Part shown: positions 5,455-61,185 of the stretch, in pieces
Layout: every line of letters starts with the position of its first letter
Numbering within the stretch: the first letter of the stretch is position 1
Assembly (NCBI GenBank): GCA_044448685.1
Contig: JBIOHC010000013.1
Span: 408 to 64,407, forward strand
DNA length: 64,000 bases
Origin: Bacteroidia bacterium
GTDB taxonomy: Bacteria; Bacteroidota; Bacteroidia; Palsa-965
Direction of reading: 5' to 3'
Notes under the pieces: model-generated
Told to the model about the DNA's origin: nothing
The model's database searches: none
Seen by the model: only the letters and a program-made list of their open reading frames with translations
Position numbers and translations under genes: made by a program

Positions 5455-6942
5455 GTGCACATAGACCTTCATAAACTATTCGAGTCACTGGTCTACAACC
5501 CCAAAGACCCTCTTCTGTTCAACAGCGGATTTTTCCTGTTTTTCTTTTTCGGCTTCCTTCTCTTTTACCAATTGGTTTATAAGCGAAAACTCACCCGTGT
5601 TATCCTTTTTACACTATTTTCCCTCTATTTCTTTTATAAAGCCTGTGGTTTTTATTTCCTTCTTATCATACTTTCTGCCGTTGTTGATTTCAATCTCTCC
5701 AACTGGATTCACCGTATCGGCCCCTCGGCTAAGAAAAAAATTCTCTTAGGTTTCAGTATCGTAATAAACCTGGGTCTCCTGTTTTATTTTAAGTATACTG
5801 ACTTTTTTATTAATATACTCAATGAAACAACAGGAGGAACGATTCAACCCTTGCATCTTATTTTGCCGATAGGAATTTCATTTTACACATTTGAAAATCT
5901 AAGCTATACCATTGATGTGTACCGGAGGCATTTCAAGCCTGTAAAAAGTTTCTGGGACTATTGCTTTTTTCTTTCCTTTTTTCCAAAGCTGGTTATGGGT
6001 CCTATTGTAAGGGCTTCCGATTTTATTCCTCAGATTCGCCAGGATATTATCATTACAAAGGATGATATTGCAAAGGGTCTGTATCTGATTCTTGGAGGCT
6101 TGTTTAAGAAAGCGGTCATCTCAGACTATATCTATGTCAATTATGTGGAGTATATTTTCAATGATCCTGCCCGTCACAGCGGTATAGAATGTCTTTTCGG
6201 GGTGTATGGGTATGCGCTTGTTATATATTGCGATTTTTCAGGGTACAGTGATATGGCAATAGGTATGGCCAAATGGATGGGATTCCGGATTCCAGCTAAC
6301 TTTGATTCACCCTATCAAAGTACCAGTATTACTGAATTCTGGAGGCGGTGGCATATTTCCCTTTCTTCCTGGCTACGCGACTACCTTTATATTCCCTTAG
6401 GAGGGAACCGCAAGGGTAAATTCCGTCAGTATCTTAATTTATTCGCAACCATGCTCCTGGGAGGGCTGTGGCATGGAGCGAGTTGGAATTTTATTCTCTG
6501 GGGTGGAATGCATGGTGCAGCACTTGCTGTTGACAAGATGAGAATGGAAGTGTTCGGGCAGGTTAAAAAAGCACGCTCAGCACTGTGGGATAAACTTCTC
6601 AAAGTTTTGGGATTCCTTATTACCTTTCATTTTGTTTGCTTCTGCTGGATATGGTTCAAAGCCGATAGTTTTGAAAAAGCCAGAATCATCCTTAATCAGC
6701 TGTTCTATAATTTTGACGCAGCCGCATTTCAACCACTTATCAGCAATTACAAAACAGTATTCGGGATGATGGCACTCGCCTTTATCCTCCATGCATTACC
6801 CCAAAAGGCCGAACTTTTTACTCAGAAAATACTTGGAGGCATGTCTGTTCTTGGCAGAATAGCTGTTCTGACCCTGGTTATATGGCTTGTAATGCAGGTA
6901 GGTACGGCAGAGAGGGTAATGCCTATATATCTGCAATTTTGA
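5455..6942 (+). CDS. MBOAT-family membrane O-acyltransferase (AlgI/PatA/DltB-like)
   Basis: Polytopic membrane protein with the MBOAT signature FWRRWHISLSSWLRDYLYIPLGGNR and GGLWHGASW. GTG start in the ORF track. Confidence 0.85.
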   Translation: MHIDLHKLFESLVYNPKDPLLFNSGFFLFFFFGFLLFYQLVYKRKLTRVILFTLFSLYFFYKACGFYFLLIILSAVVDFNLSNWIHRIGPSAKKKILLGFSIVINLGLLFYFKYTDFFINILNETTGGTIQPLHLILPIGISFYTFENLSYTIDVYRRHFKPVKSFWDYCFFLSFFPKLVMGPIVRASDFIPQIRQDIIITKDDIAKGLYLILGGLFKKAVISDYIYVNYVEYIFNDPARHSGIECLFGVYGYALVIYCDFSGYSDMAIGMAKWMGFRIPANFDSPYQSTSITEFWRRWHISLSSWLRDYLYIPLGGNRKGKFRQYLNLFATMLLGGLWHGASWNFILWGGMHGAALAVDKMRMEVFGQVKKARSALWDKLLKVLGFLITFHFVCFCWIWFKADSFEKARIILNQLFYNFDAAAFQPLISNYKTVFGMMALAFILHALPQKAELFTQKILGGMSVLGRIAVLTLVIWLVMQVGTAERVMPIYLQF

Positions 6943-6959
6943 GCAGAAATTCCTATTTT

Positions 6960-6991
6960 TTTGGCTGATTCAATTAATTTTTGTTTCTTTG
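6960..6991 (+). promoter_or_regulatory. Bacteroidota-type promoter candidate for rpmB (TTTG ... TTtcTTTG)
   Basis: TTTG at 6960-6963 and TTTCTTTG at 6984-6991, followed by CAACCC. The same extended motif recurs upstream of rpmG. Confidence 0.4.
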
Positions 6992-7293: not shown

Positions 7294-7334
7294 AAAAACG
7301 TTGCTAACTTCGTGTGGCAACGTTTTTCTTTTGT
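7294..7334 (+). terminator. rho-independent terminator after rpmB
   Basis: 11-bp perfect stem AAAAACGTTGC / GCAACGTTTTT followed by a T-rich tail. Confidence 0.7.
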
Positions 7335-7338
7335 ACTT

Positions 7339-8748
7339 ATGTTACGTACCGGATTCCTGTTTTTCGTAAATTTCATGTCTCTTGCTCTTTATTCTCAGAG
7401 CGATAAATTCCGATACGATTCAGATTTATTAAGTAAGGAATTTCATGCAGGGCGCAGGAATGCCCTGCGTGCCCTAATGCCCGACAGCAGTGTTGCCGTT
7501 TTCTTTGCCAACCCGGAACGTAACCGTTCCAATGATGTGGATTATCAATACAGTCAGGATCCTGATTTTTATTACCTCAGCGGATATCCTGAACCGAATG
7601 CATTACTTTTCATTTTTAAGGAAAAAGTTCAGATTGATTCTGTTTATACGAATGAACTGCTCTTTGTACAGGAAAGAAACCCTTACCGGGAAAGCTGGAA
7701 CGGTCGAAGACTAGGTATAGAAGGGGTTAGAAAAGAGCTGGGGTTTGCGCATGCATTACTCAATTCCCAATTTGCCGATCTTTCCATGGGTTTTCCCCGA
7801 TTCCATAAGATTTATTGTATCGAGCCCAAAGACGATATCCGGGATGATAAGAATGACAAAGGAGACCTGTTCAGTCTGGTGAAACATTTCAGAAACAAGA
7901 CTAATTCCCTGAATACAAAAGATAACTATGCCCTTGTCCAGTTCATGGCTGGATTGAGAGAAGTAAAAACACCGGAAGAGATGAAGCTACTCCGTAAAGC
8001 TGTGCGGATCAGCTGTGAGTCACATGCTGTCCTCATGCACTCTCTGGATACGAGCATGACAGAGTATCAGGCACAGGCTGTTATTGAATATGGGTTCAAA
8101 GCAAGGGGGTCTGAATATCCGGGATATCCGAGCATTGTTGGAGCAGGGGAAAACAGTTGTATCCTGCATTATATAGAAAACAGGAGACATTTTAAGACTA
8201 ACGACATCCTCGTTCTCGATGCGGGGGCCGAATACCATGGATACACAGCAGATATCACACGATCTTTGCCGGTAAACGGACATTTCAGTCCGGAACAACG
8301 CCTGATTTATGATATTGTTTACGATGCACAGGCTGCCGGAATCAATGCCTGTATGGAAGGAAATGAATTCAGGGCAGCACATAAAGCCGCTTTCAATGTT
8401 ATATCACGCAGAATGAAGGACTTGGGGATAATCAAAAATGAACTTGAAGCTATGAAATATTTTTTTCATGGCACATCGCATTACCTGGGCCTGGATGTAC
8501 ATGATGCAGGGCTTTATGGTAAGCTTAAGCCCGGTAATGTAATTACGGTTGAGCCTGGGATATATATCCCTGAAGGATCTGATTGCGACAAAAAATGGTG
8601 GAATATAGGGATCAGGATAGAGGATGATATACTCATTACAAGCGGCAAGCCGGAAAATCTTAGTGCCTCCCTGCCTTCAAAGGCTGAAGAAATTGAGAGA
8701 ATAATGAGGGAAAAACAAGTATTTCCCTTCAAGCCGGCCGAAAAGTAA
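7339..8748 (+). CDS. Xaa-Pro aminopeptidase (M24B family, AMP_N plus peptidase domains)
   Basis: M24 metal-ligand context HGTSHYLGLDVHD, VEPGIYIP, IRIEDD. The ATG at 7339 gives a signal-like N-terminus. The ORF-track start at 7276 is a TTG inside the rpmB terminator. Confidence 0.85.
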   Translation: MLRTGFLFFVNFMSLALYSQSDKFRYDSDLLSKEFHAGRRNALRALMPDSSVAVFFANPERNRSNDVDYQYSQDPDFYYLSGYPEPNALLFIFKEKVQIDSVYTNELLFVQERNPYRESWNGRRLGIEGVRKELGFAHALLNSQFADLSMGFPRFHKIYCIEPKDDIRDDKNDKGDLFSLVKHFRNKTNSLNTKDNYALVQFMAGLREVKTPEEMKLLRKAVRISCESHAVLMHSLDTSMTEYQAQAVIEYGFKARGSEYPGYPSIVGAGENSCILHYIENRRHFKTNDILVLDAGAEYHGYTADITRSLPVNGHFSPEQRLIYDIVYDAQAAGINACMEGNEFRAAHKAAFNVISRRMKDLGIIKNELEAMKYFFHGTSHYLGLDVHDAGLYGKLKPGNVITVEPGIYIPEGSDCDKKWWNIGIRIEDDILITSGKPENLSASLPSKAEEIERIMREKQVFPFKPAEK

Positions 8749-8755
8749 GCAGTTA

Positions 8756-8787
8756 TTTTGCTGATTATTAAAAAAAAGCTACATTTG
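8756..8787 (+). promoter_or_regulatory. Bacteroidota-type promoter candidate for rpmG (TTTG ... TAcaTTTG)
   Basis: TTTTG at 8756-8760 and TACATTTG at 8780-8787 with 19-bp spacing, followed by CAACCC as upstream of rpmB. Confidence 0.45.
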
Positions 8788-43819: not shown

Positions 43820-46345
43820 ATGGCTGAAGGAGAAAAAATAATTCCGATAAACATTGAAAATGAGATGCAGACCTCGTATATCGATTATGCGATGTCAGTC
43901 ATTGTGTCGCGTGCTTTACCGGATGTACGTGACGGATTAAAACCCGTTCACCGCAGGGTTCTCTTCGGTATGCTTGATCTGGGGGTTCTTTCCAACCGCC
44001 CTTATAAGAAATCAGCCCGTATAGTAGGGGAGGTCCTGGGTAAATACCACCCCCATGGTGATACCTCCGTTTATGATGCCATGGTGCGTATGGCTCAGGA
44101 ATGGAGCCTGCGTTACCCCCTGGTTGACGGGCAGGGTAACTTCGGTTCGGTTGATGGTGATCCACCGGCTGCCATGCGTTATACAGAAGCCCGTCTTCGG
44201 AAAATTGCCGAGGAAATGCTGGGCGATATAGAAAAGGATACCGTCGACTTCAGACCTAACTTCGACGACTCTCTGGAAGAACCGACCGTTCTTCCAACCC
44301 GGGTTCCCAACCTGTTGGTTAACGGAGCTTCCGGTATTGCCGTAGGTATGGCTACCAATATGCCTCCGCATAACCTCCGGGAGATAGTGGATGCCTGTAT
44401 TGCCTATATTGACAATAAGGATATTGATCTTGCCGGCCTGCTCCAGTATGTCAAAGCCCCTGATTTCCCAACAGGTGGTATCATATACGGTTACCAGGGT
44501 GTCAAAGATGCGTTCGAAACAGGAAGAGGACGTATCGTAATGCGCGCCAAAACAAATATTGAAATCCACAACGACAGGGAACGTCTCATTGTCACCGAAA
44601 TTCCTTACCAGGTGAACAAGGCTCAGATGATCGAGAATACGGCCGCCCTCATCAATGACAAGAAAATTGAAGGTATAAGTGCCCTGCGCGATGAAAGCGA
44701 CAGGGATGGAATGCGTATTGTTTATGAAATAAAACGCGATGCTATTACCAATGTGGTTCTGAATAACCTGTTCAAATACACTGCATTACAGACTGCCTTC
44801 AGCGTTAATAATATTGCCCTTGTAGCCGGACGGCCGGTTATGCTTAACCTCAAAACCCTTGTCGGACATTTTATCGATTTCAGGCATGAGGTTGTTATAC
44901 GCCGTACACGCTATGAACTGGATCAGGCTCAGAAAAGAGCCCATATCCTGCAAGGATACCTTATTGCACTTGATCACCTGGATGAAGTAATCAAACTCAT
45001 TCGCGAATCCAAAACTCCGAACGAAGCCCAGGAGCAGCTTATTATCCGTTTTGCCCTCAGCGAGATACAGAGTAAGGCCATTCTCGAAATGCGTCTCCGT
45101 GTATTGACAGGCCTGGAAAGAGACAAGATCAAGTCTGAATACGATGACCTGATGAAACTCATCACCTACCTCAATGAAGTCCTGGCTGAAGAACCTCTCC
45201 GTATGGAAATCATCAAGTCAGAACTCCTGGAAGTAAAGGAGAAATACGGAGATGAACGTAAAACAGTGATAGAATTTGCTTCCGGCGATCAGCGCATGGA
45301 AGACCTCATAGCCGATGAAGATGTGGTAATCACCATCTCGCATATGGGATATATCAAACGTACCCTTCTGAGTGAATACCGTACCCAGGCAAGAGGAGGG
45401 AAGGGCTCAAAAGGAACAGCTACCCGTGATGAGGATTTCCTGGAACATCTGTTTGTAGCCACCAACCATAACTACCTCCTGTTCTTTACCGAGCAGGGAC
45501 GTTGTTTCTGGATGAGGGCCTATGAAATTCCGGAAGGAAACAAAGCCAGCAAGGGCAGGGCTATTCAAAACCTGATCAATATTCCACAGGATGATAAGGT
45601 GAAGGCATATATAAATGTCAAGAACCTCACAGATGAAGAATATGTCAGGAACAATTTCATCATTATGTGTACCAAGAATGGTATCATCAAGAAAACAAGC
45701 CTGGAAGATTATTCCCGTCCAAGGGCGAATGGTATCAATGCCATAACCGTACGCGACGGAGATTCCCTGCTCGAAGCCCGCTTAACAAGTGGAAAGGATG
45801 AAATCATGCTTGCTTCCAAGCTGGGCAAGGTGGTCCGTTTTAACGAAACCAAGGTCCGCCCTATGGGCCGTAATGCTTCCGGTGTAAGAGGTATCAATCT
45901 GGAAGATGAAAGCGGCGCTCCGAATGAAGTTATAGGTATGATTACCATTGCCAGTCCTGAAACCAATGTATTGGTTGTGTCTGAAAAAGGATTCGGTAAA
46001 CGCTCCGATATAGAAGAATACAGGGTTACCAACAGGGGCGGTAAAGGGGTAAAAACCCTCAATGTGACGGATAAGACAGGTAACCTTATCTCTATCAAGG
46101 ATGTGGATGACAATAAGGATCTGATGATTATCACCAAGTCGGGAATAGCAATACGCCTTGCCGTAAAAGACCTGAGAGTAATAGGCAGGGCTACCCAGGG
46201 TGTCAGACTGATAAACCTGGCCGAAACTGATGAGATAGCATCTGTTGCCAAAGTGGATGTTGATCCGGAAGAGGAAAAAGCCCAGCCGGAAGAAAATGGT
46301 GAAAATTATGAAAATGGAGAAACTCCTGCGTCTGATGATAAATAG
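43820..46345 (+). CDS. gyrA: DNA gyrase subunit A
   Basis: Canonical GyrA N-terminus ([28 protein letters not shown]), active-site region [10 protein letters not shown], beta-pinwheel C-terminal domain and an acidic tail. Confidence 0.97.
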
Positions 46346-46431: not shown

Positions 46432-47700
46432 ATGAAGAAACACCTCATCATCCTTTCAGCGATGAGCCTCCTTACAGGTATGAGTATGGCCCAGTCGAGC
46501 AAACGAACTACTGCTCATAATGCCCTGGAAGATTATAAGCGGTATAAAGAAGTGGATGCCCTTAAAAAGGCCCGGGAAAACATAGATGCAGCATCCCTGC
46601 ATGCAGAAACAGGGGTGGAAGCCAAAACCTGGGTATACCGTGGAGAAATCTATCTTGTTTCCTATGAAAACAGTCTTCAGCAGGAAGAAGCAAAGCAAAA
46701 AGATGTAAGCGACCCAAAGAAAAAGAACATGGTCGCCTATAGCAATACCTCTTTGGCAGAGCTTCAGACTTCTTATGAAAGCTATCTCAAAGCCAGGGAA
46801 TATGACAAAAAAAAGATCTATACCGAGGAAATTGGAAGCGCCCTTCCACGTATTATGATACATTTTGACAATAAAGGAGTGGCTGACTATAACTCTAAAC
46901 AACTGGCAACAGCGGCCATAAGCTTTGAAAAATGTTATGAGGTAAGCCAACAAATGGGACACCCCGATACCTCCGTACTGAATAATGCTGCGATGACCTA
47001 CAGACTGGCAGGTGATCTGCCTAAGTCTATTGAGATCTATAAAAAGCTGGTAGCCATGGGATTCGGAAAAGGAAAGACAGTAGCTATCCTTTCCAATGTA
47101 TATGTGGCAAATAAGGATACGGCAGCAGCGCTTACCCTGGTAGCGGCCGAACGCGCCAAATACCCTAATGACGGAGATCTGATTGTAAACGAAACACAAC
47201 TGTTTCTGTGGACCAAGAAGCGCAAGGAGGCTCTCGCCAACCTTCAGAATCTGATAGCCAAGAATCCTAACGATTCCACCATGAATATGCTGGTTGGCAG
47301 TACCTATGATAATATGGCTAACCCCAAGGATGATAAAGGGAATGATTTACCGCCTCCTCCTGAACAGACAGAATATTTCAACCAGGCTGTTACTTATTAC
47401 AAAAAAGCCATTGAAATCAAACCTGATTATTTCAAAGCCCTTTTTAACCTCGGAATCCTCTATTTTAACCGGGGAGCCAAAATGTATAATAAGGCCAATA
47501 ATATCAAGGAAGCTGCTTTGTATGCAAAGGAGAGCAAAAAGGCAGATGATGAGTTTAAACTAGCCTTGCCTTATATGGAAAAAGCTCACCAGGTAATGCC
47601 TAAAGATAAGGATACGATGAAGGCACTTAAAACATTGTATTCCAGAACGGAACAGCAAGCCAAATACGATAAGATCGTAGAGGAACTAAAGAATAACTGA
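46432..47700 (+). CDS. TPR-repeat lipoprotein-like protein
   Basis: Signal peptide and TPR-like units (for example YFKALFNLGILYFNRG). Confidence 0.8.
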   Translation: MKKHLIILSAMSLLTGMSMAQSSKRTTAHNALEDYKRYKEVDALKKARENIDAASLHAETGVEAKTWVYRGEIYLVSYENSLQQEEAKQKDVSDPKKKNMVAYSNTSLAELQTSYESYLKAREYDKKKIYTEEIGSALPRIMIHFDNKGVADYNSKQLATAAISFEKCYEVSQQMGHPDTSVLNNAAMTYRLAGDLPKSIEIYKKLVAMGFGKGKTVAILSNVYVANKDTAAALTLVAAERAKYPNDGDLIVNETQLFLWTKKRKEALANLQNLIAKNPNDSTMNMLVGSTYDNMANPKDDKGNDLPPPPEQTEYFNQAVTYYKKAIEIKPDYFKALFNLGILYFNRGAKMYNKANNIKEAALYAKESKKADDEFKLALPYMEKAHQVMPKDKDTMKALKTLYSRTEQQAKYDKIVEELKNN

Positions 47701-47747: not shown

Positions 47748-48059
47748 TTAGGCCGGGATGGAAACCTCAACTTTATCCAGACCGCTGGGAGGCATTACAA
47801 ACTTTCCTTTGGGGTAGAACGAACCTTCAATATACATCACTTCTCTCATTTCATCCAGGGGGAAACATCTCCAGTTAAGCTCGGTTTCCCGGGCAATACC
47901 GCTTTCATCTTCCCCGGCGAACTGATAGAAAAACCCATGTGCCACCCCTTTAATTGAACCAATCTGATGAGGGCAAAGCTGGCGTTTGTACCCGTTGTAA
48001 ACAGCATAAATCTGTTGTTTGTTGGTTATGGCTTTCTGGACGGTAACGTAGTTACTCAT
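47748..48059 (-). CDS. small hypothetical protein (103 aa), possibly a WYL/SH3-like beta-barrel
   Basis: The internal ATG at 48059 gives MSNYVTVQKAI.... The pattern Y-x-G-x-x-R-x-x-x-PH ... YQFAG-x-x-x-SG ... WRCF-x-L-x-x-M resembles small WYL-like proteins. The fold call is tentative. Confidence 0.5.
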   Translation of the reverse strand: MSNYVTVQKAITNKQQIYAVYNGYKRQLCPHQIGSIKGVAHGFFYQFAGEDESGIARETELNWRCFPLDEMREVMYIEGSFYPKGKFVMPPSGLDKVEVSIPA

Positions 48060-48270: not shown

Positions 48271-48399
48271 TTGTCATTCCGAGGCACTTTGGGGTTGAAT
48301 TGAGCGGGGTAGTGCCGAAGAATCTCCTTGGACTTTCGGCGTTTTACTTTTCTTTGCCAACCACGCAAAGAAAAGTAACAAAAGAAAAGTCACCACGAA
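48271..48399 (+). repeat. REP/MITE-like element, copy 1 of a 128-129-bp direct duplication
   Basis: TTGTCATTCCGAGGCACTTTGGGGTTGAATTGAGCGGGGTAGTGCCGAAGAATCTCC...GTCACCACGAA recurs at 48506-48633 with two substitutions and one 1-nt indel. Confidence 0.85.
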
Positions 48400-48505: not shown

Positions 48506-48633
48506 TTGTCATTCCGAGGCACTTTGGGGTTGAATTGAGCGGGGCAGTGCCGAAGAATCTCCTTGGACTTTCGGCGTTTTACTTTTCTTTGCCAACCACG
48601 CAAAAAAAAGTAACAAAAGAAAAGTCACCACGA
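48506..48633 (+). repeat. REP/MITE-like element, copy 2
   Basis: Near-identical to 48271-48399 and offset by 235 bp. Confidence 0.85.
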
Positions 48634-48666
48634 ATGACTATATACCTGACAATCCTTATATTTACA

Positions 48667-48694
48667 ATTTAACATAATGTTAATTATGGATAAA
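48667..48694 (-). other. dif: candidate dif (XerC/XerD chromosome dimer resolution) site
   Basis: Minus-strand 28-mer TTTATCCATAA-TTAACA-TTATGTTAAAT. The XerD arm is 11/11 identical to E. coli dif, and the XerC arm shares CATAA. It sits in an AT-rich intergenic stretch at a convergent gene junction. Confidence 0.65.
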
Positions 48695-48719
48695 AGAGTA
48701 ATCTAAAACCAGGGGTGTA

Positions 48720-49458
48720 CGACATTCATTTTGGTCCGTTCAAGTCAAAACGTTCGTTATCGGACATCGATCCTTATCCATTGGAATTCAACCCTTATCC
48801 ATGTTGATTCTAACCTTATCTGTTGTAGGTCTACCCTTATCCGTTTTATATCTACCGTTATCCATTTGGAATCAATCCTTTTCCATTTCAAATCAAACCT
48901 TGTTCGTTAAATGTCAACCTTTATCCATGTTATGTCTAACTTTTTTCAGTTTACATCAAACTTTGTCCGGTTCGATTAAAACCTTACCTGTTTAATGTCT
49001 AACCTTATACAGTTGAATTCAACCCTTATTCATGTCAATTCTAATCGTCTTCATTTTAAATCAATCCTTGAACGTTTCAATTCAAATCTTGACGATTTCA
49101 ATTCAACCGTTGTTCACTGAATGTCTAACCTTAAGCATTTTAAGTCAATCTTAAATAGTATCAGGATTCTCCCGAACCGGTTAAACACTATCCTATACAG
49201 GATGTTATTAATCCGAAACCGGATCATTTCTATCCCGATCCGGATATTATCAATCCGAAGCCGGATCGTTTCAACCCCGATCCGGGCGTTATCAACCTGT
49301 AACCGGGTCTTTTCAATCCCGAATCGGGCATTATCAGATCGAAACCGGGTCGTTTCAATCCCAATCCGGGCATTATCTGGCCTAAACCGGATCCTTTCAA
49401 TCCCGATCCGGGCATTATCTGCCCTAAACCGGATGATATCAATTCCATGCAGGCGGGT
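48720..49458 (+). repeat. array of about 35 head-to-tail degenerate 20-22-bp (mode 21) repeats
   Basis: I segmented it by eye into consecutive units, for example GAATTCAACCCTTATCCATGTT / GATTCTAACCTTATCTGTTGTA / GGTCTACCCTTATCCGTTTTA ... TTATCAATCCGAAGCCGGATCG / TTTCAACCCCGATCCGGGCG. All units share a TC(A/T)A(Y)CC block. Confidence 0.85.
49205..49436. repeat. 42-bp super-repeat sub-array forming tandem CCGGATC-stem hairpins
   Basis: Pairs CCGGATC(A/G/C)-TTTC(T/A)A(T/C)CCC-GATCCGG occur at about 49219-49244, 49261-49286 and 49387-49412, with weaker versions at about 49303-49328 and 49345-49370. Confidence 0.7.
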
Positions 49459-49508
49459 TTAGTCAGCTACCCTGCTTAACATAATATTCGATTGATTATC
49501 AATAGAAT

Positions 49509-49543
49509 AAGCAAGTCCACCTCTATTAAAGATGGACTTGCTT
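49509..49543 (-). terminator. hairpin downstream of the adhesin gene stop
   Basis: 11-bp perfect stem AAGCAAGTCCA / TGGACTTGCTT. The minus-strand tail ATTCTATT is only moderately T-rich. Confidence 0.5.
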
Positions 49544-49570: not shown

Positions 49571-52500
49571 TTAGTTTCTGATCAGCATAAAGGATCCGTT
49601 AAAGGCATATTGTCTGCCATCGTCCCCGGAGGCTGTGATGATATAAAAATAAGTTCCGGGAACAGCAAGTGCACCACCCGGAGTTCGTCCGTCCCAACCC
49701 ATACCGGCAGCCGTCAATGTAATCAGTTCTACACCCCAGCGGTCATAGATCTTACCCTCAAACTTGGAAATTCCCTGGGAAGACACAACAAAAAGGTCAT
49801 TGGAGCCATCGTCATTCGGTGTAAACACATTCGGAACCTTTATCCAGGAAGGGAGCTCCTTAATGACAATAACCCGTGAATAAGTACTCGTACAACCGGT
49901 GATGGTATCAGTCACGGTCAATGTTACGGTATAGTTCCCGCCTGTGGCATAGGTATGACCAGCTCCGGTACCGGTGGTGTTTTCATTGCTCGTGGTTCCA
50001 TCCCCATAATTCCAGTCCCATTCACTTGAATTAGCCGAACTGCTGTCAGCAAAAGTGATGGGCAAAGGCATTGTGCCGGTGGTGGCACTTGGAATAAATC
50101 CGGCCTGGACCGTGTTCTCCGTTACATTGAAATGGGCGGTGTCCGTACCACAATTATTAGTCACAAGTACATAGTAAGGGCCACCGGTGCTGACCACGAT
50201 ACTGGAAGTTGTGGCACCGGTACTCCATACATAAGTACCTCCCCCGCTTGCATTAAGAATATCGGTTGAGCCTTTACAGAAGGCCGGAGGACCGGTAACA
50301 AGTGATTTTGGGAGAGAATCGCGTATGAGGGTGATTTTAGTTGAGTCAACACCACAGGAATTGATGGCATATAAGGTAAAGGTGCCGCCTGTTCCTGCTA
50401 CAATCGATGTGGCAGCCGAACCGGTATTCCAGGAATAGGTACTGCCTCCGGAAGCGGTGAGCGTTACAGGATTCCCGAAACAGAATGTCGTAGGTCCGCT
50501 GGGTGTAATCAAGGCCACAGGTTTTACTCCTGTATTCTTTACACTATCCACAACCTGGAATGTACATCCTGCTGAATCCGTAACAGTACAGGTATAGGAA
50601 TTCTTAGGCAGGCTTCCGGCATTACCGCTTACTGTTCCTGTAGCAGGCGCCGGTGACCAGGCATACGTGTAAGTGGCTGTTCCACCGCTTGGAGTCACGT
50701 TCATACTTCCATTACTGAGGTTACAGGTACTGGATGTGCTGACATCTGAAGCAGTCAACGGAGACGGCTGGATGATAGTGAGAATCTGCTGCTTGCTGCA
50801 TCCATGTGCATCTGTCATTGTACATGTATACGTACCGGCACAAAGTGAAGATGCTGTTTGGGTGAGGCTCGGGCTTCCAACCCAGGCATAAGTAAAGGCA
50901 CCGGTACCTCCGCTGGGTACAACAGTAGCTGAACCGTTACAGGCTCCGTTACAAAGTACCTTCTGTGTGGTTGCTACATCTGTTATAGGTGCAGGCTGTG
51001 TGATGGTGAAAACCTGCTGAGTCGGGCAACCGTTTGCATCGGTAACATGACAGGTATATGTTCCCTGGCACAAAGCAGTGACACCGGGTGTAGTGGCTGT
51101 GTTGGGAGACCAGGAATAGGTATACGCACTTGTTCCTCCGCTTACCGTAGCTGTTGCAGTGCCATCACAGACGGCATTGCAACTGGTATTGGTTGATGCC
51201 GGTGAAATGGACAAGGCCGCAGGTTGTGTCAATGTTATTGTTTGGGTAGTACTGCAGCCGGCTGCATCTTTCACCGTACAGATATAGCTTGTTCCAGCGC
51301 AGAGGTTATTGGCAGTACCGGTAGTGCTTGGGTTGCTTGTCCAGGAATATGTAAGCGGAGCTGTTCCGCCGCTTCCGGTCACAGTTGCAGTTCCGTTGCA
51401 ACTTGCATTACAAGTCGGATTCGCTGATGAAGCCACAGATGCAGAAGGACCTCCTACGTTATTCACCGGAACAATGGTATTCTGTGTACAGCCTTTGGAA
51501 TCGGTTACCGTAACAGTGTAGTTACCGGCTGATAAGTTAATAGCCGTTGGCGTTGTCTGGCCTGCAGCAGGAGCAGGTGTCCAGGCATAGGTATAAGGTC
51601 CGGTACCTCCGCTGGCTGTGCCGGTTGCCGATCCGTTTGTACCACCGCAGTTGGCCGATGTTGAAGATGGAGCAACGGCAAGCACTGCAGGCTGAGTGAT
51701 GTTAAAGATCTGCTGGGTGGTACAACCGTTACCATCCTTAGCAATACACGTATAAGTACCGGCACAGAGGTTATTCGCCGTACTTGTGATACTCGGGTTG
51801 GTGATCCAGCTATAGGTATAAGGTCCTGTTCCTCCGCTTACGTTGATAGTAGCTGTTCCGTTACAGGAAGCATTGCAGGACGCATTGGCTGTGACACCCG
51901 GAGTTGAGCTTGGCCCGGCTGTGGTAGAGACAGCAATAATCGTTTGCTTGGTACATCCTTTTGAATCGGTTACGGTAACGGTATAGTTACCGGCCGGTAA
52001 GTTAACGGCCGTAGCGGTTGTTTGTCCTGCAGCAGGTGCAGGAGTCCAGGCATAAGTATAACCTCCGTTTCCACCCGAAGCTGTAACTCCGGCTGAGCCG
52101 TTTGAACTGCCGCAAGTAGCAGCTACAGAACTGGGTGTTGTGGCAAGAGCTATAGGTTGGGTAATTGTTACAGTCGTTGTGGAAGTACATCCGTTAGCTG
52201 TGGTAACAAGACAGGAATAGGTTCCGGCCGGAAGTCCGACCGTGGTAGGATTTGTTCCTCCCCCACCCGACCAGGAATAGGTATAGCCGGGAGTGCCGCC
52301 GGTGGCGTTAGCAGTACCGGTTCCATTCGTACCACCGTTACAGGATACAGCAGTTGTTGAATTGGTTAAGGTAGCTGAATTACCCACATTCACCGTTGTT
52401 GTCGCCGTACTGGTACAGCTGCCCTGGGTTTCTGTAACAGTATAGGTGGTTGTGGAGGCAGGGGAAGCATTGACTGATGATCCTGTTGTGCCACTTAATC

Positions 52501-53560
52501 CGGTAGAAGGGCTCCAGACGAAGGTTCCTGAACCGGTAGCATTGAGCGTAACACTTCCGGCTCCGTTACAAACGGTAGGTGCAAGCGGACTCACTGTTGT
52601 AGGTGTGTTCGGGTTTACAGTTACCGTTGTGGTGCTGGTATAGGTGGTGGTTGCACCATCGCAATTGGTGACAACCATGGTAGCAGTATAGGTGGAAGTT
52701 GTAGTTGGGCAAACACTTACACTTGCACCGCTGCCTACCACCCCGCTTGGGCCTGTCCAGGTAATTGTATAAGATGGAGCACCGGTCGGTGAAAATCTCC
52801 AGGCTTCATTAACGGCTGACCATGCTGAAGGGTAGTTACGCCCGGGAGGAACAACAGCAACAGTACCGGTCTGATTCTGGATACCGATGATTCCGGCACC
52901 ACCATTCCATCCACTGCAGGAATAGCTGTTCTGAAGATATACATCAATATAATTCGTATTCTCATACAGGACCAGCTGTACCGTCGAGTTCGGAGTTCCG
53001 TCACAAATTCCGCTCCCTTTATCAAACAAAGGCACATTCACCCAGCTCATCACCAGCGCATGACAGGGTGCTGAACCCAGTGTGGTGATGTAGGAGTTAC
53101 CTCCAATACCCTGGTCCATATCACGGAATGCGGCGCAAATGGTATTGCCGGGAAGATCAGTGGTATTGGGCAATGAAGTGCTAAGGGAATAGTTATCATA
53201 CCCGCTTGAATTGGTCAGGTCAAAGGTGAGTTCACCGTTATCACCTAATACAGCCTGGTTGTACCAGTTACCGAAATAACAGAAGTTAAAGCCCAGATTG
53301 ACGGTACTGCTCCATACATCATCGGCACCTACAAGGATAGAAGAACCGGTGAAAGGATAAGGAGCATAGGGAATGGCACTGACAGTATAGGATGTGGTCT
53401 GGTTATTCGAGACCACTGCCGCATTCAGTGTGGCACAAGCCCCCTGACAAATTGTTTGAGGGCTGCCGGCATTGACAGAGGGGCATGCCGGTGCGCCTTG
53501 TGCATGGAAACCGAGACTTCGGAATACAAGCAAGCACAGAAAAAATAGTTTTTTCTTCAA
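49571..53560 (-). CDS. T9SS-secreted cell-surface adhesin: N-terminal unassigned domain, 8 SprB-type repeats, PKD domain, type-B (CHU_C) C-terminal sorting domain
   Basis: Repeats C-N-x-x-x-N-G-x-x-x-x-x-x-SGGTGPYTYSW and GTYTCxVTDxNGC. PKD segment WDWNYGDG...HTYATGGNYTVTLTV. C-terminal domain VPNVFTPNDDGSNDLF...GTYFYII. A probable TTG start at 53560 gives MKKKLFFLCLL; the ORF-track start is 53644. Confidence 0.9.
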   Translation of the reverse strand: MKKKLFFLCLLVFRSLGFHAQGAPACPSVNAGSPQTICQGACATLNAAVVSNNQTTSYTVSAIPYAPYPFTGSSILVGADDVWSSTVNLGFNFCYFGNWYNQAVLGDNGELTFDLTNSSGYDNYSLSTSLPNTTDLPGNTICAAFRDMDQGIGGNSYITTLGSAPCHALVMSWVNVPLFDKGSGICDGTPNSTVQLVLYENTNYIDVYLQNSYSCSGWNGGAGIIGIQNQTGTVAVVPPGRNYPSAWSAVNEAWRFSPTGAPSYTITWTGPSGVVGSGASVSVCPTTTSTYTATMVVTNCDGATTTYTSTTTVTVNPNTPTTVSPLAPTVCNGAGSVTLNATGSGTFVWSPSTGLSGTTGSSVNASPASTTTYTVTETQGSCTSTATTTVNVGNSATLTNSTTAVSCNGGTNGTGTANATGGTPGYTYSWSGGGGTNPTTVGLPAGTYSCLVTTANGCTSTTTVTITQPIALATTPSSVAATCGSSNGSAGVTASGGNGGYTYAWTPAPAAGQTTATAVNLPAGNYTVTVTDSKGCTKQTIIAVSTTAGPSSTPGVTANASCNASCNGTATINVSGGTGPYTYSWITNPSITSTANNLCAGTYTCIAKDGNGCTTQQIFNITQPAVLAVAPSSTSANCGGTNGSATGTASGGTGPYTYAWTPAPAAGQTTPTAINLSAGNYTVTVTDSKGCTQNTIVPVNNVGGPSASVASSANPTCNASCNGTATVTGSGGTAPLTYSWTSNPSTTGTANNLCAGTSYICTVKDAAGCSTTQTITLTQPAALSISPASTNTSCNAVCDGTATATVSGGTSAYTYSWSPNTATTPGVTALCQGTYTCHVTDANGCPTQQVFTITQPAPITDVATTQKVLCNGACNGSATVVPSGGTGAFTYAWVGSPSLTQTASSLCAGTYTCTMTDAHGCSKQQILTIIQPSPLTASDVSTSSTCNLSNGSMNVTPSGGTATYTYAWSPAPATGTVSGNAGSLPKNSYTCTVTDSAGCTFQVVDSVKNTGVKPVALITPSGPTTFCFGNPVTLTASGGSTYSWNTGSAATSIVAGTGGTFTLYAINSCGVDSTKITLIRDSLPKSLVTGPPAFCKGSTDILNASGGGTYVWSTGATTSSIVVSTGGPYYVLVTNNCGTDTAHFNVTENTVQAGFIPSATTGTMPLPITFADSSSANSSEWDWNYGDGTTSNENTTGTGAGHTYATGGNYTVTLTVTDTITGCTSTYSRVIVIKELPSWIKVPNVFTPNDDGSNDLFVVSSQGISKFEGKIYDRWGVELITLTAAGMGWDGRTPGGALAVPGTYFYIITASGDDGRQYAFNGSFMLIRN

Positions 53561-53731
53561 GGAGATGTGTGTTTTTATACTAAAAAAAGCGATTAATGCG
53601 GATAAATGATTGACTAATATAGGAATTATAAAGCTGATTACCAATTAACGACATCCAATTTCATGAACAATTTAGGAGTGATAAGTCGATCAAGATACTA
53701 TTAAGCGTATGTGACTCAATAATTAAGACAT

Positions 53732-60955: not shown

Positions 60956-61165
60956 CTGTCATTCTGAGTCGCCTTGGGGTGGCTTTGCGAGATGAACACG
61001 CTTTGTCATTCTGAGCGACCTTGGGGCAGCATCGTGGGAAGCAGACGCGAAGAATCTATCCGGGTTGTGCAAATAATTATTAAAATCACGAAACTCTTAT
61101 TCTAACTCCAATAGATTCTTCGGCACTGCTCACACACTTTACAACCCCAAGGTGCCTCAGAATGA
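60956..61165. repeat. REP/MITE-like composite: two direct partial copies plus one inverted copy of the GTCATTCYGAG...CGAAGAATCT element
   Basis: 60956-60983 and 61003-61059 lie on the plus strand, and 61111-61165 is inverted. The reverse complement of 61111-61165 closely matches 48273-48325. Confidence 0.7.
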
Positions 61166-61185
61166 AAAATTCCCCGAATAAACAC

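Follow-up and report, generated by a model that had tools for sequence, protein, structure and literature searches.

A phased array of degenerate 21-bp repeats on the XerC side of a chromosomal dif-type site in a Bacteroidia bacterium

Introduction

A non-coding array of 33 head-to-tail 21-bp units, all in one orientation, occupies 693 bp (48762-49454) beside a dif-type Xer site in a 64,000-nucleotide stretch of the genome of a Bacteroidia bacterium (GTDB lineage Palsa-965; assembly GCA_044448685.1, contig JBIOHC010000013.1, positions 408 to 64,407 of the forward strand). This whole stretch is referred to here as the window, and coordinates are those of the window unless a related locus is named. 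On the evidence of its sequence and of its evolution in related loci, the array may be a phased platform, for protein binding or for DNA architecture, next to the XerC arm of dif, a reading that we favor tentatively and hold at somewhat less than even confidence. As of 2011, dimer resolution and terminus organization had not been studied experimentally in Bacteroidota (PMC3091885).

Architecture and register of the array

An initial annotation of this DNA had proposed about 35 units between 48720 and 49458, beginning 25 bp from dif. Its description of an in-register array in a single orientation held up, with a smaller extent. When consecutive 21-bp frames were scored with a leave-one-out profile, offset 0 was the best for 33 of 34, spanning 48762-49454; the first frame, at 48741, scored -10.5 at offset 0 and is not a member. 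The end of dif is separated from the first clear unit by 67 bp (48695-48761), a spacer that holds at most two badly degenerate units, and the earlier figure of 25 bp counts two poorly fitting frames. Across the 693 bp there are no indels, either net or local, at a mean identity between units of about 60%. The self-identity of the array sequence is 0.58 at a lag of 21 and 0.64 at a lag of 42, as compared with a maximum of 0.34 over lags 5-63 in 1000 shuffles, and Tandem Repeats Finder returned periods of 21, 42, 84, and 126. Many dispersed copies had been named beforehand as the mark of a generic satellite; at a threshold of at least 14 bits, each unit profile had one match outside the array in the other 63 kb, so that within the window the unit is not dispersed.

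The array is divided into two sub-families on the + strand, as the initial annotation had noticed. The left part (48762-49160) consists of 19 in-register units with the consensus TnAanTCaAaCCTTaTcCATT, and the right part (49203-49454) of 12 units arranged as six 42-bp dimers with the consensus TctTaTCAAtCCcaAaCCGGg. Between them lie two transitional units (49161-49202), which fit weakly (3.1 and 4.4 bits) and are both in register, with offset 0 as the best. The profiles of the two sub-families are correlated at 0.49 at shift 0, a value reached by none of 300 column-shuffled profiles, and the motif TC(A/T)A-N-CC-N4-CC is common to both; a TC(A/T)A(Y)CC block had first been reported for every unit. 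In the left part, identity between units is flat at about 0.60 (0.57-0.64) over unit distances of 1-8. Since it is independent of distance, the similarity is hard to attribute to recent duplication of neighboring units, in agreement with the earlier view of the units as old and diverged and not generated by recent slippage. In the right part, there is a higher-order structure of 42/126 bp: units at distance 2 are 0.79 identical and those at distance 1 are 0.56 identical, Tandem Repeats Finder gave a period of 42 with 80% matches and no indels, and every dimer contains the inverted repeat CCGGATC-N11-13-GATCCGG. The 42-bp dimer is the unit of a more recent amplification.

Conservation is distributed unevenly over the 21 columns. 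Its standard deviation among columns is 0.19, as compared with 0.10 under a uniform star model, and none of 2000 simulations reached the observed value. In the left part, six columns are 89-100% conserved, and others are 37-58% conserved. Column conservation is thus bimodal, as in a binding motif, and more uneven, from nearly invariant to nearly random columns, than would result if a single ancestral unit had decayed uniformly.

The dif site and a second half-site

The Xer site lies at 48667-48694 on the - strand and reads TTTATCCATAA (XerC arm)-TTAACA-TTATGTTAAAT (XerD arm); on the + strand, it reads ATTTAACATAA-TGTTAA-TTATGGATAAA, in a 28-bp layout of 11, 6, and 11 bp. The XerD arm TTATGTTAAAT is identical to that of Escherichia coli dif. 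For comparison, related loci (given L and P numbers) were drawn from genome, metagenome, and assembly collections and anchored on the TPR protein encoded directly downstream of gyrA. A 19-nt core of the site, TTAACATAATGTTAATTAT, was found exactly or with one mismatch 3' of the TPR gene in L001/L054, L052, L002, L003, L016, L102/L103, and L106-L109, loci whose TPR proteins range in identity to that of the window from 80% down to about 34%. In at least 10 related loci, dif is present as one intergenic, syntenic copy after the TPR gene. Because both the 19-nt to 28-nt intergenic sequence and its position are conserved, the site is, on comparative grounds, a genuine chromosomal dif-type Xer site of the clade, as the initial annotation had suspected. 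Its fixed place after the gyrA-TPR pair could make it a terminus marker for uncultured genomes. GC skew over the 64 kb tracks gene strand, and no switch by which the terminus could be placed is callable.

The array adjoins the XerC arm (TTATGGATAAA) of dif in the window and in L001, L052, and L107. On its far side, 20 bp past the last unit, there is a second XerD-arm half-site, GCTTAACATAATATT (49474-49488, + strand), in the same orientation as dif. It retains the XerD arm and four of the six central bases, as judged against a TATTAA variant, and has no recognizable XerC arm. In the 64 kb, the sequence TTAACATAAT has just two occurrences, one at 48669 and the other at 49476, each on the + strand; two matches anywhere in the window were obtained in only 3 of 100 shuffles. 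No second Xer site was found 3' of the arrays of L001 and L052. Relative to dif, the phase of the array differs between the window and L001 by about 12 bp modulo 21, a hand calculation from which no conclusion is drawn.

An origin of the units as copies of the XerC arm was considered and rejected. When reverse-complemented, TTATCCAT matches part of the arm in the window; among relatives, the arm is conserved only as TTAT(G/A), and the relatives' arrays do not track it. The match is treated as a coincidence or as a trace of module origin.

The array in related loci

The nearest relatives compared at the DNA level, L001 (with L054) and L052, have TPR proteins 80% identical and GyrA proteins 92% identical to those of the window, and they share its gene order. 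After the TPR gene and dif, both have 17-18 in-register units of 21 bp, with the orientation and the side of dif seen in the window. Their unit profile correlates with that of the window's right part at r = 0.46-0.48, a value reached by 0.3-1% of 300 column-shuffled profiles; beyond dif, their DNA is otherwise unalignable to the window. These arrays are orthologous to that of the window; the loss in very close relatives named beforehand as evidence against a conserved feature was not observed in L001 or L052.

The comparison of L001 with L052 provides insights into how the array changes. Over 920 aligned bp, from dif through the end of the array, there are about 150 substitutions and no indels, whereas the flanking spacers show about one gap per seven mismatches; neutral divergence of the pair, estimated from third codon positions, is approximately 11-21%. 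Together with the lack of indels in the window's own array, this result shows a register kept more tightly than would be expected from neutral decay, and it supports the proposal that spacing is under selection. Changes per site amount to 0.128 in conserved columns and 0.259 in variable columns (Fisher P = 0.002; Spearman rho = -0.61). The two loci also share, in the interval from dif to the array, a block of about 190 bp (L001 13042-13230, equivalent to L052 8363-8551) that is 98% identical, as compared with 79-89% at neutral sites of the pair. This block contains no open reading frame (ORF), has no counterpart in the window, and may be a separate conserved non-coding element.

Arrays of the same period and different sequence occur farther away. 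In L107 (TPR identity of 58%), dif is followed by about 24 units of the form TAAAAGAACA...ATTATC, and L104 (60%) has about 21 units, AAATCGGTACGATGGAAAATG, with no dif found within reach. The closest relative by TPR identity (86%), the P0040 contig from JGI sample 3300050821, is known from gene calls alone. On this contig, 2.2 kb separate the small ORF from the SprB-like gene, a longer spacer than in the window, and ORFs of 148 and 229 residues without Pfam matches were called there on the - strand. These ORFs could be spurious calls over a more regular array or real cargo genes.

Coding potential, RNA structure, and promoter-like motifs

The array is non-coding, in agreement with the initial annotation. 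Six-frame translation gave no open frame through it, and the best + frame has 3 stops, as compared with a mean of 3.3 in within-column permutations, so that stops are not avoided. Pfam and NCBIfam returned nothing for the ORFs of the array, and a 113-residue ORF had no homolog among 5.8 billion proteins in a word-indexed search. For a stop-free stretch of 114 residues on the - strand, a HMMER search of 1.84 billion representatives gave 301 matches; these are unrelated ORFs with heptad or tandem repeats and no common domain, and the one locus inspected (L232) consists of a simple 16-bp repeat. In none of five candidate frames are substitutions between L001 and L052 in excess at third positions, and in the only long ORF of this pair, identity by codon position is 0.84/0.74/0.86, the second position being the most variable.

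A heptad-repeat coding origin (21 bp being seven codons) is on these results largely refuted, and we regard it as very improbable, whether as a single gene, as several successive small ORFs that each start MS.. (48731-48910, 48995-49120, and 49121-49462), or as a pseudogene that died recently. In its favor are a period that is a multiple of three, the one + frame with just 3 stops, and the - strand ORFs called in the spacer of the 86%-identity relative. A further argument for it came from L003 and L016, where 21-bp periodicity at the equivalent position beside dif belongs to a genuine small heptad-repeat gene (L003 2581-2757; L016 2393-2572). This gene is under purifying selection, with identities by codon position of 0.85/0.91/0.64 that resemble those of flanking genes. 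It belongs to a family of 38 small proteins (P0001-P0038), mostly of 57-102 residues, which is built of heptad repeats with the motif NQKTIL, has no Pfam domain, and is found in both low- and high-GC genomes. Among the anchored loci, the family profile matches only L003 and L016; it misses the arrays of the window, L001, and L052, and descent of the array from such a gene was rejected. Elsewhere, the family is not linked to dif, and its gene in L003 and L016 is treated as a coincidental neighbor.

Also highly unlikely is that the region is transcribed, as a structured or regulatory RNA or from an array of promoters. Rfam gave no match for the array, whether at its gathering cutoffs or at E = 1. 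Folding of the left two-thirds is no more stable than that of shuffled sequences (z = -0.3 and -1.3), and sequence turnover between L001 and L052 is near-neutral; the structured-RNA reading put forward in the initial annotation is unsupported. On the side of RNA or promoters, the right part folds into hairpins on the - strand (z = -2.9), owing to its inverted repeats, and four 42-bp dimers (49246-49442, - strand) carry TTGAAA or TTGATA, 17 nt, and GATAAT, with 10 of 12 matches to the sigma-70 consensus. Housekeeping promoters of Bacteroidota lack the TTGACA/TATAAT consensus. Because these bacteria use a different promoter consensus, the promoter-like motifs are probably a by-product of the unit sequence.

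Mobile elements and modules at dif

Among the viral contigs of IMG/VR, 28 (L074-L101) contain an exact copy of the 19-nt dif core, and several of these are just 4-8 kb long, consistent with small phages that integrate via the host Xer system. Microviruses of Bacteroidetes are reported to integrate at dif-like sites, leaving 13-bp direct repeats (PMC3091885). In L055, a Bacteroidota chromosome, five dif-like sites (7320-8765), of which four share one orientation and the fifth is inverted, delimit small modules whose ORFs are 57-162 residues long, an arrangement that can be likened to the pdif modules of Acinetobacter plasmids; a 110-residue coiled-coil ORF follows this region. In L106, dif (6377-6395, +) and an inverted dif-like site (6952-6970, -), which share AACATAATGCTAAT, bracket an ORF of 95 residues. 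In L107, a close relative of L106, the second site is degenerate, and there is in addition the approximately 500-bp 21-bp array that is absent from L106. Because of the viral dif cores, the microvirus integrations, and the multi-site modules of L055 and L106, the dif neighborhood in this clade is considered a depot for Xer-bounded modules.

Similarity to the array itself was found nowhere in these collections. Searches of phage and plasmid collections with blastn gave no match to it, and scans of IMG/VR with unit patterns revealed no array, a 14-base pattern giving single matches per contig. A cluster of DnaA boxes was also considered and rejected: the array has no box at up to one mismatch and has twice the background density at two mismatches.

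Interpretation as a possible phased DNA platform

The strict register, the motif-like columns, the slower change of the motif columns, and the suppression of indels, all at a near-neutral overall rate, point to selection on a periodic property of the DNA rather than on codons or RNA structure. A protein-binding function, and a tie to the Xer system or to the terminus, are inferred. In the mechanism we tentatively propose, 33 units of exactly two helical turns would present TC(A/T)A-N-CC-N4-CC on one face of the helix, where a sequence-specific DNA-binding protein could coat the array cooperatively. Coated in this way, the roughly 0.7 kb of DNA flanking the XerC arm of dif would become a nucleoprotein segment that is stiff or coherently curved. 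Such a segment might shape events at dif, for example as the accessory arms of cer and psi do in Xer synapsis, or it might block FtsK or replication forks in a one-sided manner. Curvature had been suggested as a check on the array, and a wedge model, with assumed parameters, predicts coherent long-range curvature: the ratio of end-to-end to contour length is 0.38 for the array of the window, 0.32 for that of L001, and 0.26 for that of L052, as compared with 0.76 +/- 0.12 for the window background.

Several observations weigh against this platform reading. The predicted curvature would be expected anyway, since any 21-bp periodic sequence should sum small per-unit bends. Between L001 and L052, identity in the periodic part is 0.71-0.87, as compared with 0.79-0.89 at neighboring third codon positions, which amounts to a near-neutral rate; the conserved columns are T-rich, so that their slower change could partly reflect base composition. 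The array of L104 shows one 1-bp register shift, so the register can slip. The units of L104 and L107 are not significantly similar to those of the window, and no single conserved binding motif is common to all of the arrays. Four lineages with TPR identities of 55-60% (L102/L103, L106, L108, and L109) share dif after the TPR gene without a 21-bp array, dif abutting the next gene or an unrelated spacer; in L108 and L109, which at 55-57% identity are distant relatives and not strains, the adjoining gene is the SprB-like one. Conversely, L104 has its array without dif nearby. Finally, no candidate binding protein was found in this analysis. Because the distribution is patchy and the units are lineage-specific, the array is not a required partner of dif, and the general dif-linked role implied in the initial annotation appears unlikely.

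Alternative explanations

The main alternative, somewhat less likely than the platform, is that the array has no cellular function and is either a minisatellite, selfish or merely tolerated, or cargo left behind by an Xer-mobilized module (an integrative mobile element exploiting Xer, IMEX, or a dif module). A minisatellite would occupy a gene-free, recombination-prone slot, and in-register unequal exchange together with gene conversion would maintain its 21-bp period. The array fills the gap between dif and the directly oriented half-site, with margins of 67 bp and 20 bp, and the TTAACATAAT repeat occurs in the window only at these two bracketing places, as only few shuffles would produce. 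The dif-integrating microviruses with their 13-bp repeats, the viral contigs with the exact core, the multi-site modules of L055, and the inverted pair of L106 are also in its favor. The same explanation would account for the patchy presence, the lineage-specific units, the difference between L106 and L107, the higher-order structure of the right part, and the near-neutral overall rate. It accords less well with the lack of small indels in the window and in the 920 bp of L001 and L052, although neighboring spacers gain indels, with motif columns that evolve at half the rate of the others, and with similarity among left-part units that is independent of distance. Moreover, orientation and a similar unit have persisted since the lineages of the window and L001 split, the second site has no XerC arm and has no equivalent after the arrays of L001 and L052, and no matching array is present in the phage, plasmid, or IMG/VR collections. 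If the array were a tolerated satellite after all, it would exemplify something rare in bacteria, a degenerate minisatellite that is long-lived and keeps its register, and it would add to the evidence that the dif neighborhood is a depot for Xer-bounded modules.

Quite improbable, in our estimate, is a remnant of the replication origin (iterons) or partition centromere of a plasmid or phage integrated at dif. With its in-register 21-bp direct repeats, the array is laid out like iterons and type II centromeres; its six 42-bp dimers with CCGGATC...GATCCGG resemble centromeres built of inverted-repeat tandem units, and it sits within what may be an Xer-bounded slot. However, no rep, parA, parB, or parR-like gene is present among the neighboring genes examined, the array lacks a DnaA box at up to one mismatch and has no similarity to any plasmid or phage record, and 33 units far exceed known iteron sets. 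The orthologous arrays of L001 and L052 would also imply a long vertical residence.

Comparison with known systems

The initial annotation held that no feature class predicts such an array beside dif, a statement that overlooks the accessory sequences on the XerC side of cer and psi as well as Xer-mobilized modules. Like the array, the accessory DNA of cer (ColE1) and psi (pSC101) is non-coding and adjoins the XerC-binding arm of an Xer core. Its role is architectural, in that wrapping around accessory proteins controls synapsis. These sequences are approximately 180-200 bp long, non-tandem, bound by PepA with ArgR or ArcA, and carried on plasmids; chromosomal dif relies on FtsK. The array differs from them in consisting of 693 bp of 21-bp repeats on a chromosome, and several relatives share dif without it, which argues against its being required for recombination, unlike the cer and psi arms.

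Tandem-repeat centromeres offer a second analogy. As in the array, many in-register direct repeats make up parC of R1 and pSK41 (units of about 11 and 20 bp) and sopC of F (12 units of 43 bp, with an inverted repeat per unit), and the unit sizes are alike, at about two helical turns or at 42-43 bp with an inverted repeat. Centromeres of this type are cooperatively coated into curved or superhelical nucleoprotein. Unlike them, the array has no par genes nearby, lies on a chromosome beside dif, and comprises 33 units that are far more diverged. The iterons of theta-replicating plasmids are also direct repeats (17-22 bp) in fixed phase. They usually number 3-7 and resemble each other closely, and they adjoin an AT-rich stretch, DnaA boxes, and a rep gene; the array shares none of these features, having many diverged units, no rep-like gene among the neighboring genes examined, and no good DnaA box. 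In format, tandem-repeat plasmid centromeres and the cer/psi accessory arms are the closest analogs of the array, which is a member of neither group.

Elements that exploit Xer, such as CTX, TLC, the gonococcal genetic island, and the microvirus proviruses of Bacteroidetes, along with the pdif modules of Acinetobacter, may resemble the array, which lies between dif and a degenerate dif-like direct repeat. In contrast to these, the array would be gene-free cargo, its second site is the XerD arm alone, and the arrays of relatives have no second site. Fork traps (Tus-Ter and RTP-Ter), like the proposed platform, rely on protein-binding sites that have an orientation and lie near the terminus. The known Ter sites are solitary, 23-30 bp long, and scattered to either side of dif, whereas the array is a one-sided tandem, and there was no sign of a terminator protein that would favor a fork-trap reading of it.

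A tandem array of phased sites is a known kind of format. We are not aware of any class of long and strictly phased repeat arrays described beside a chromosomal dif, and a literature search for one found none. That the array represents an undescribed chromosomal terminus element of some Bacteroidota, in which a long phased array of weak sites on the XerC side would bind a lineage-specific protein coat, seems improbable at present. If it were true, a terminus array would control Xer synapsis, the arrival of FtsK, or fork arrest at dif, and it would be the chromosomal counterpart of the cer and psi arms or a one-sided fork trap of tandem sites. With its kept register and slower motif columns, the array offers a testable candidate platform for Xer, FtsK, or fork events.

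Neighboring genes and repeats

Upstream of dif, gyrA (43820-46345), with Pfam gyrase domains, is directly followed by the anchoring TPR-repeat protein gene (46432-47700, + strand; Pfam TPR). Downstream of the array, a terminator hairpin with a 16-pair stem (49509-49543, - strand) belongs to the convergent SprB/CHU_C gene (49571-53644), a type IX secretion cargo with Pfam SprB, PKD, and CHU_C domains. Further flanking genes include a DUF4835 gene and a Dfp-type flavoprotein gene (Pfam Flavoprotein and DFP). Look-ups by exact sequence returned no record for proteins of the window.

Between the TPR gene and dif lies an ORF of 103 residues (47748-48059, - strand; MSNYVTVQK...LNWRCFPLDE...), with a weak WYL-like match to a PADLOC model (E = 0.014) and no Pfam or NCBIfam match; a single-sequence AlphaFold model was unusable, with a predicted local distance difference test (pLDDT) score of 38. 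Its product is about 70% identical in L001 and L052, and it is absent from the other anchored loci, being confined among them to lineages with the window-type array.

Also outside the array, between this ORF and dif, a 129-bp direct repeat with a long internal hairpin is present in two copies (48271-48399 and 48506-48634) that are 98% identical and 235 bp apart. A third, partial copy lies 12 kb away (61104-61175, - strand), and related pieces occur in L001 and L052. The element looks like a small dispersed repeat of the miniature inverted-repeat transposable element type.

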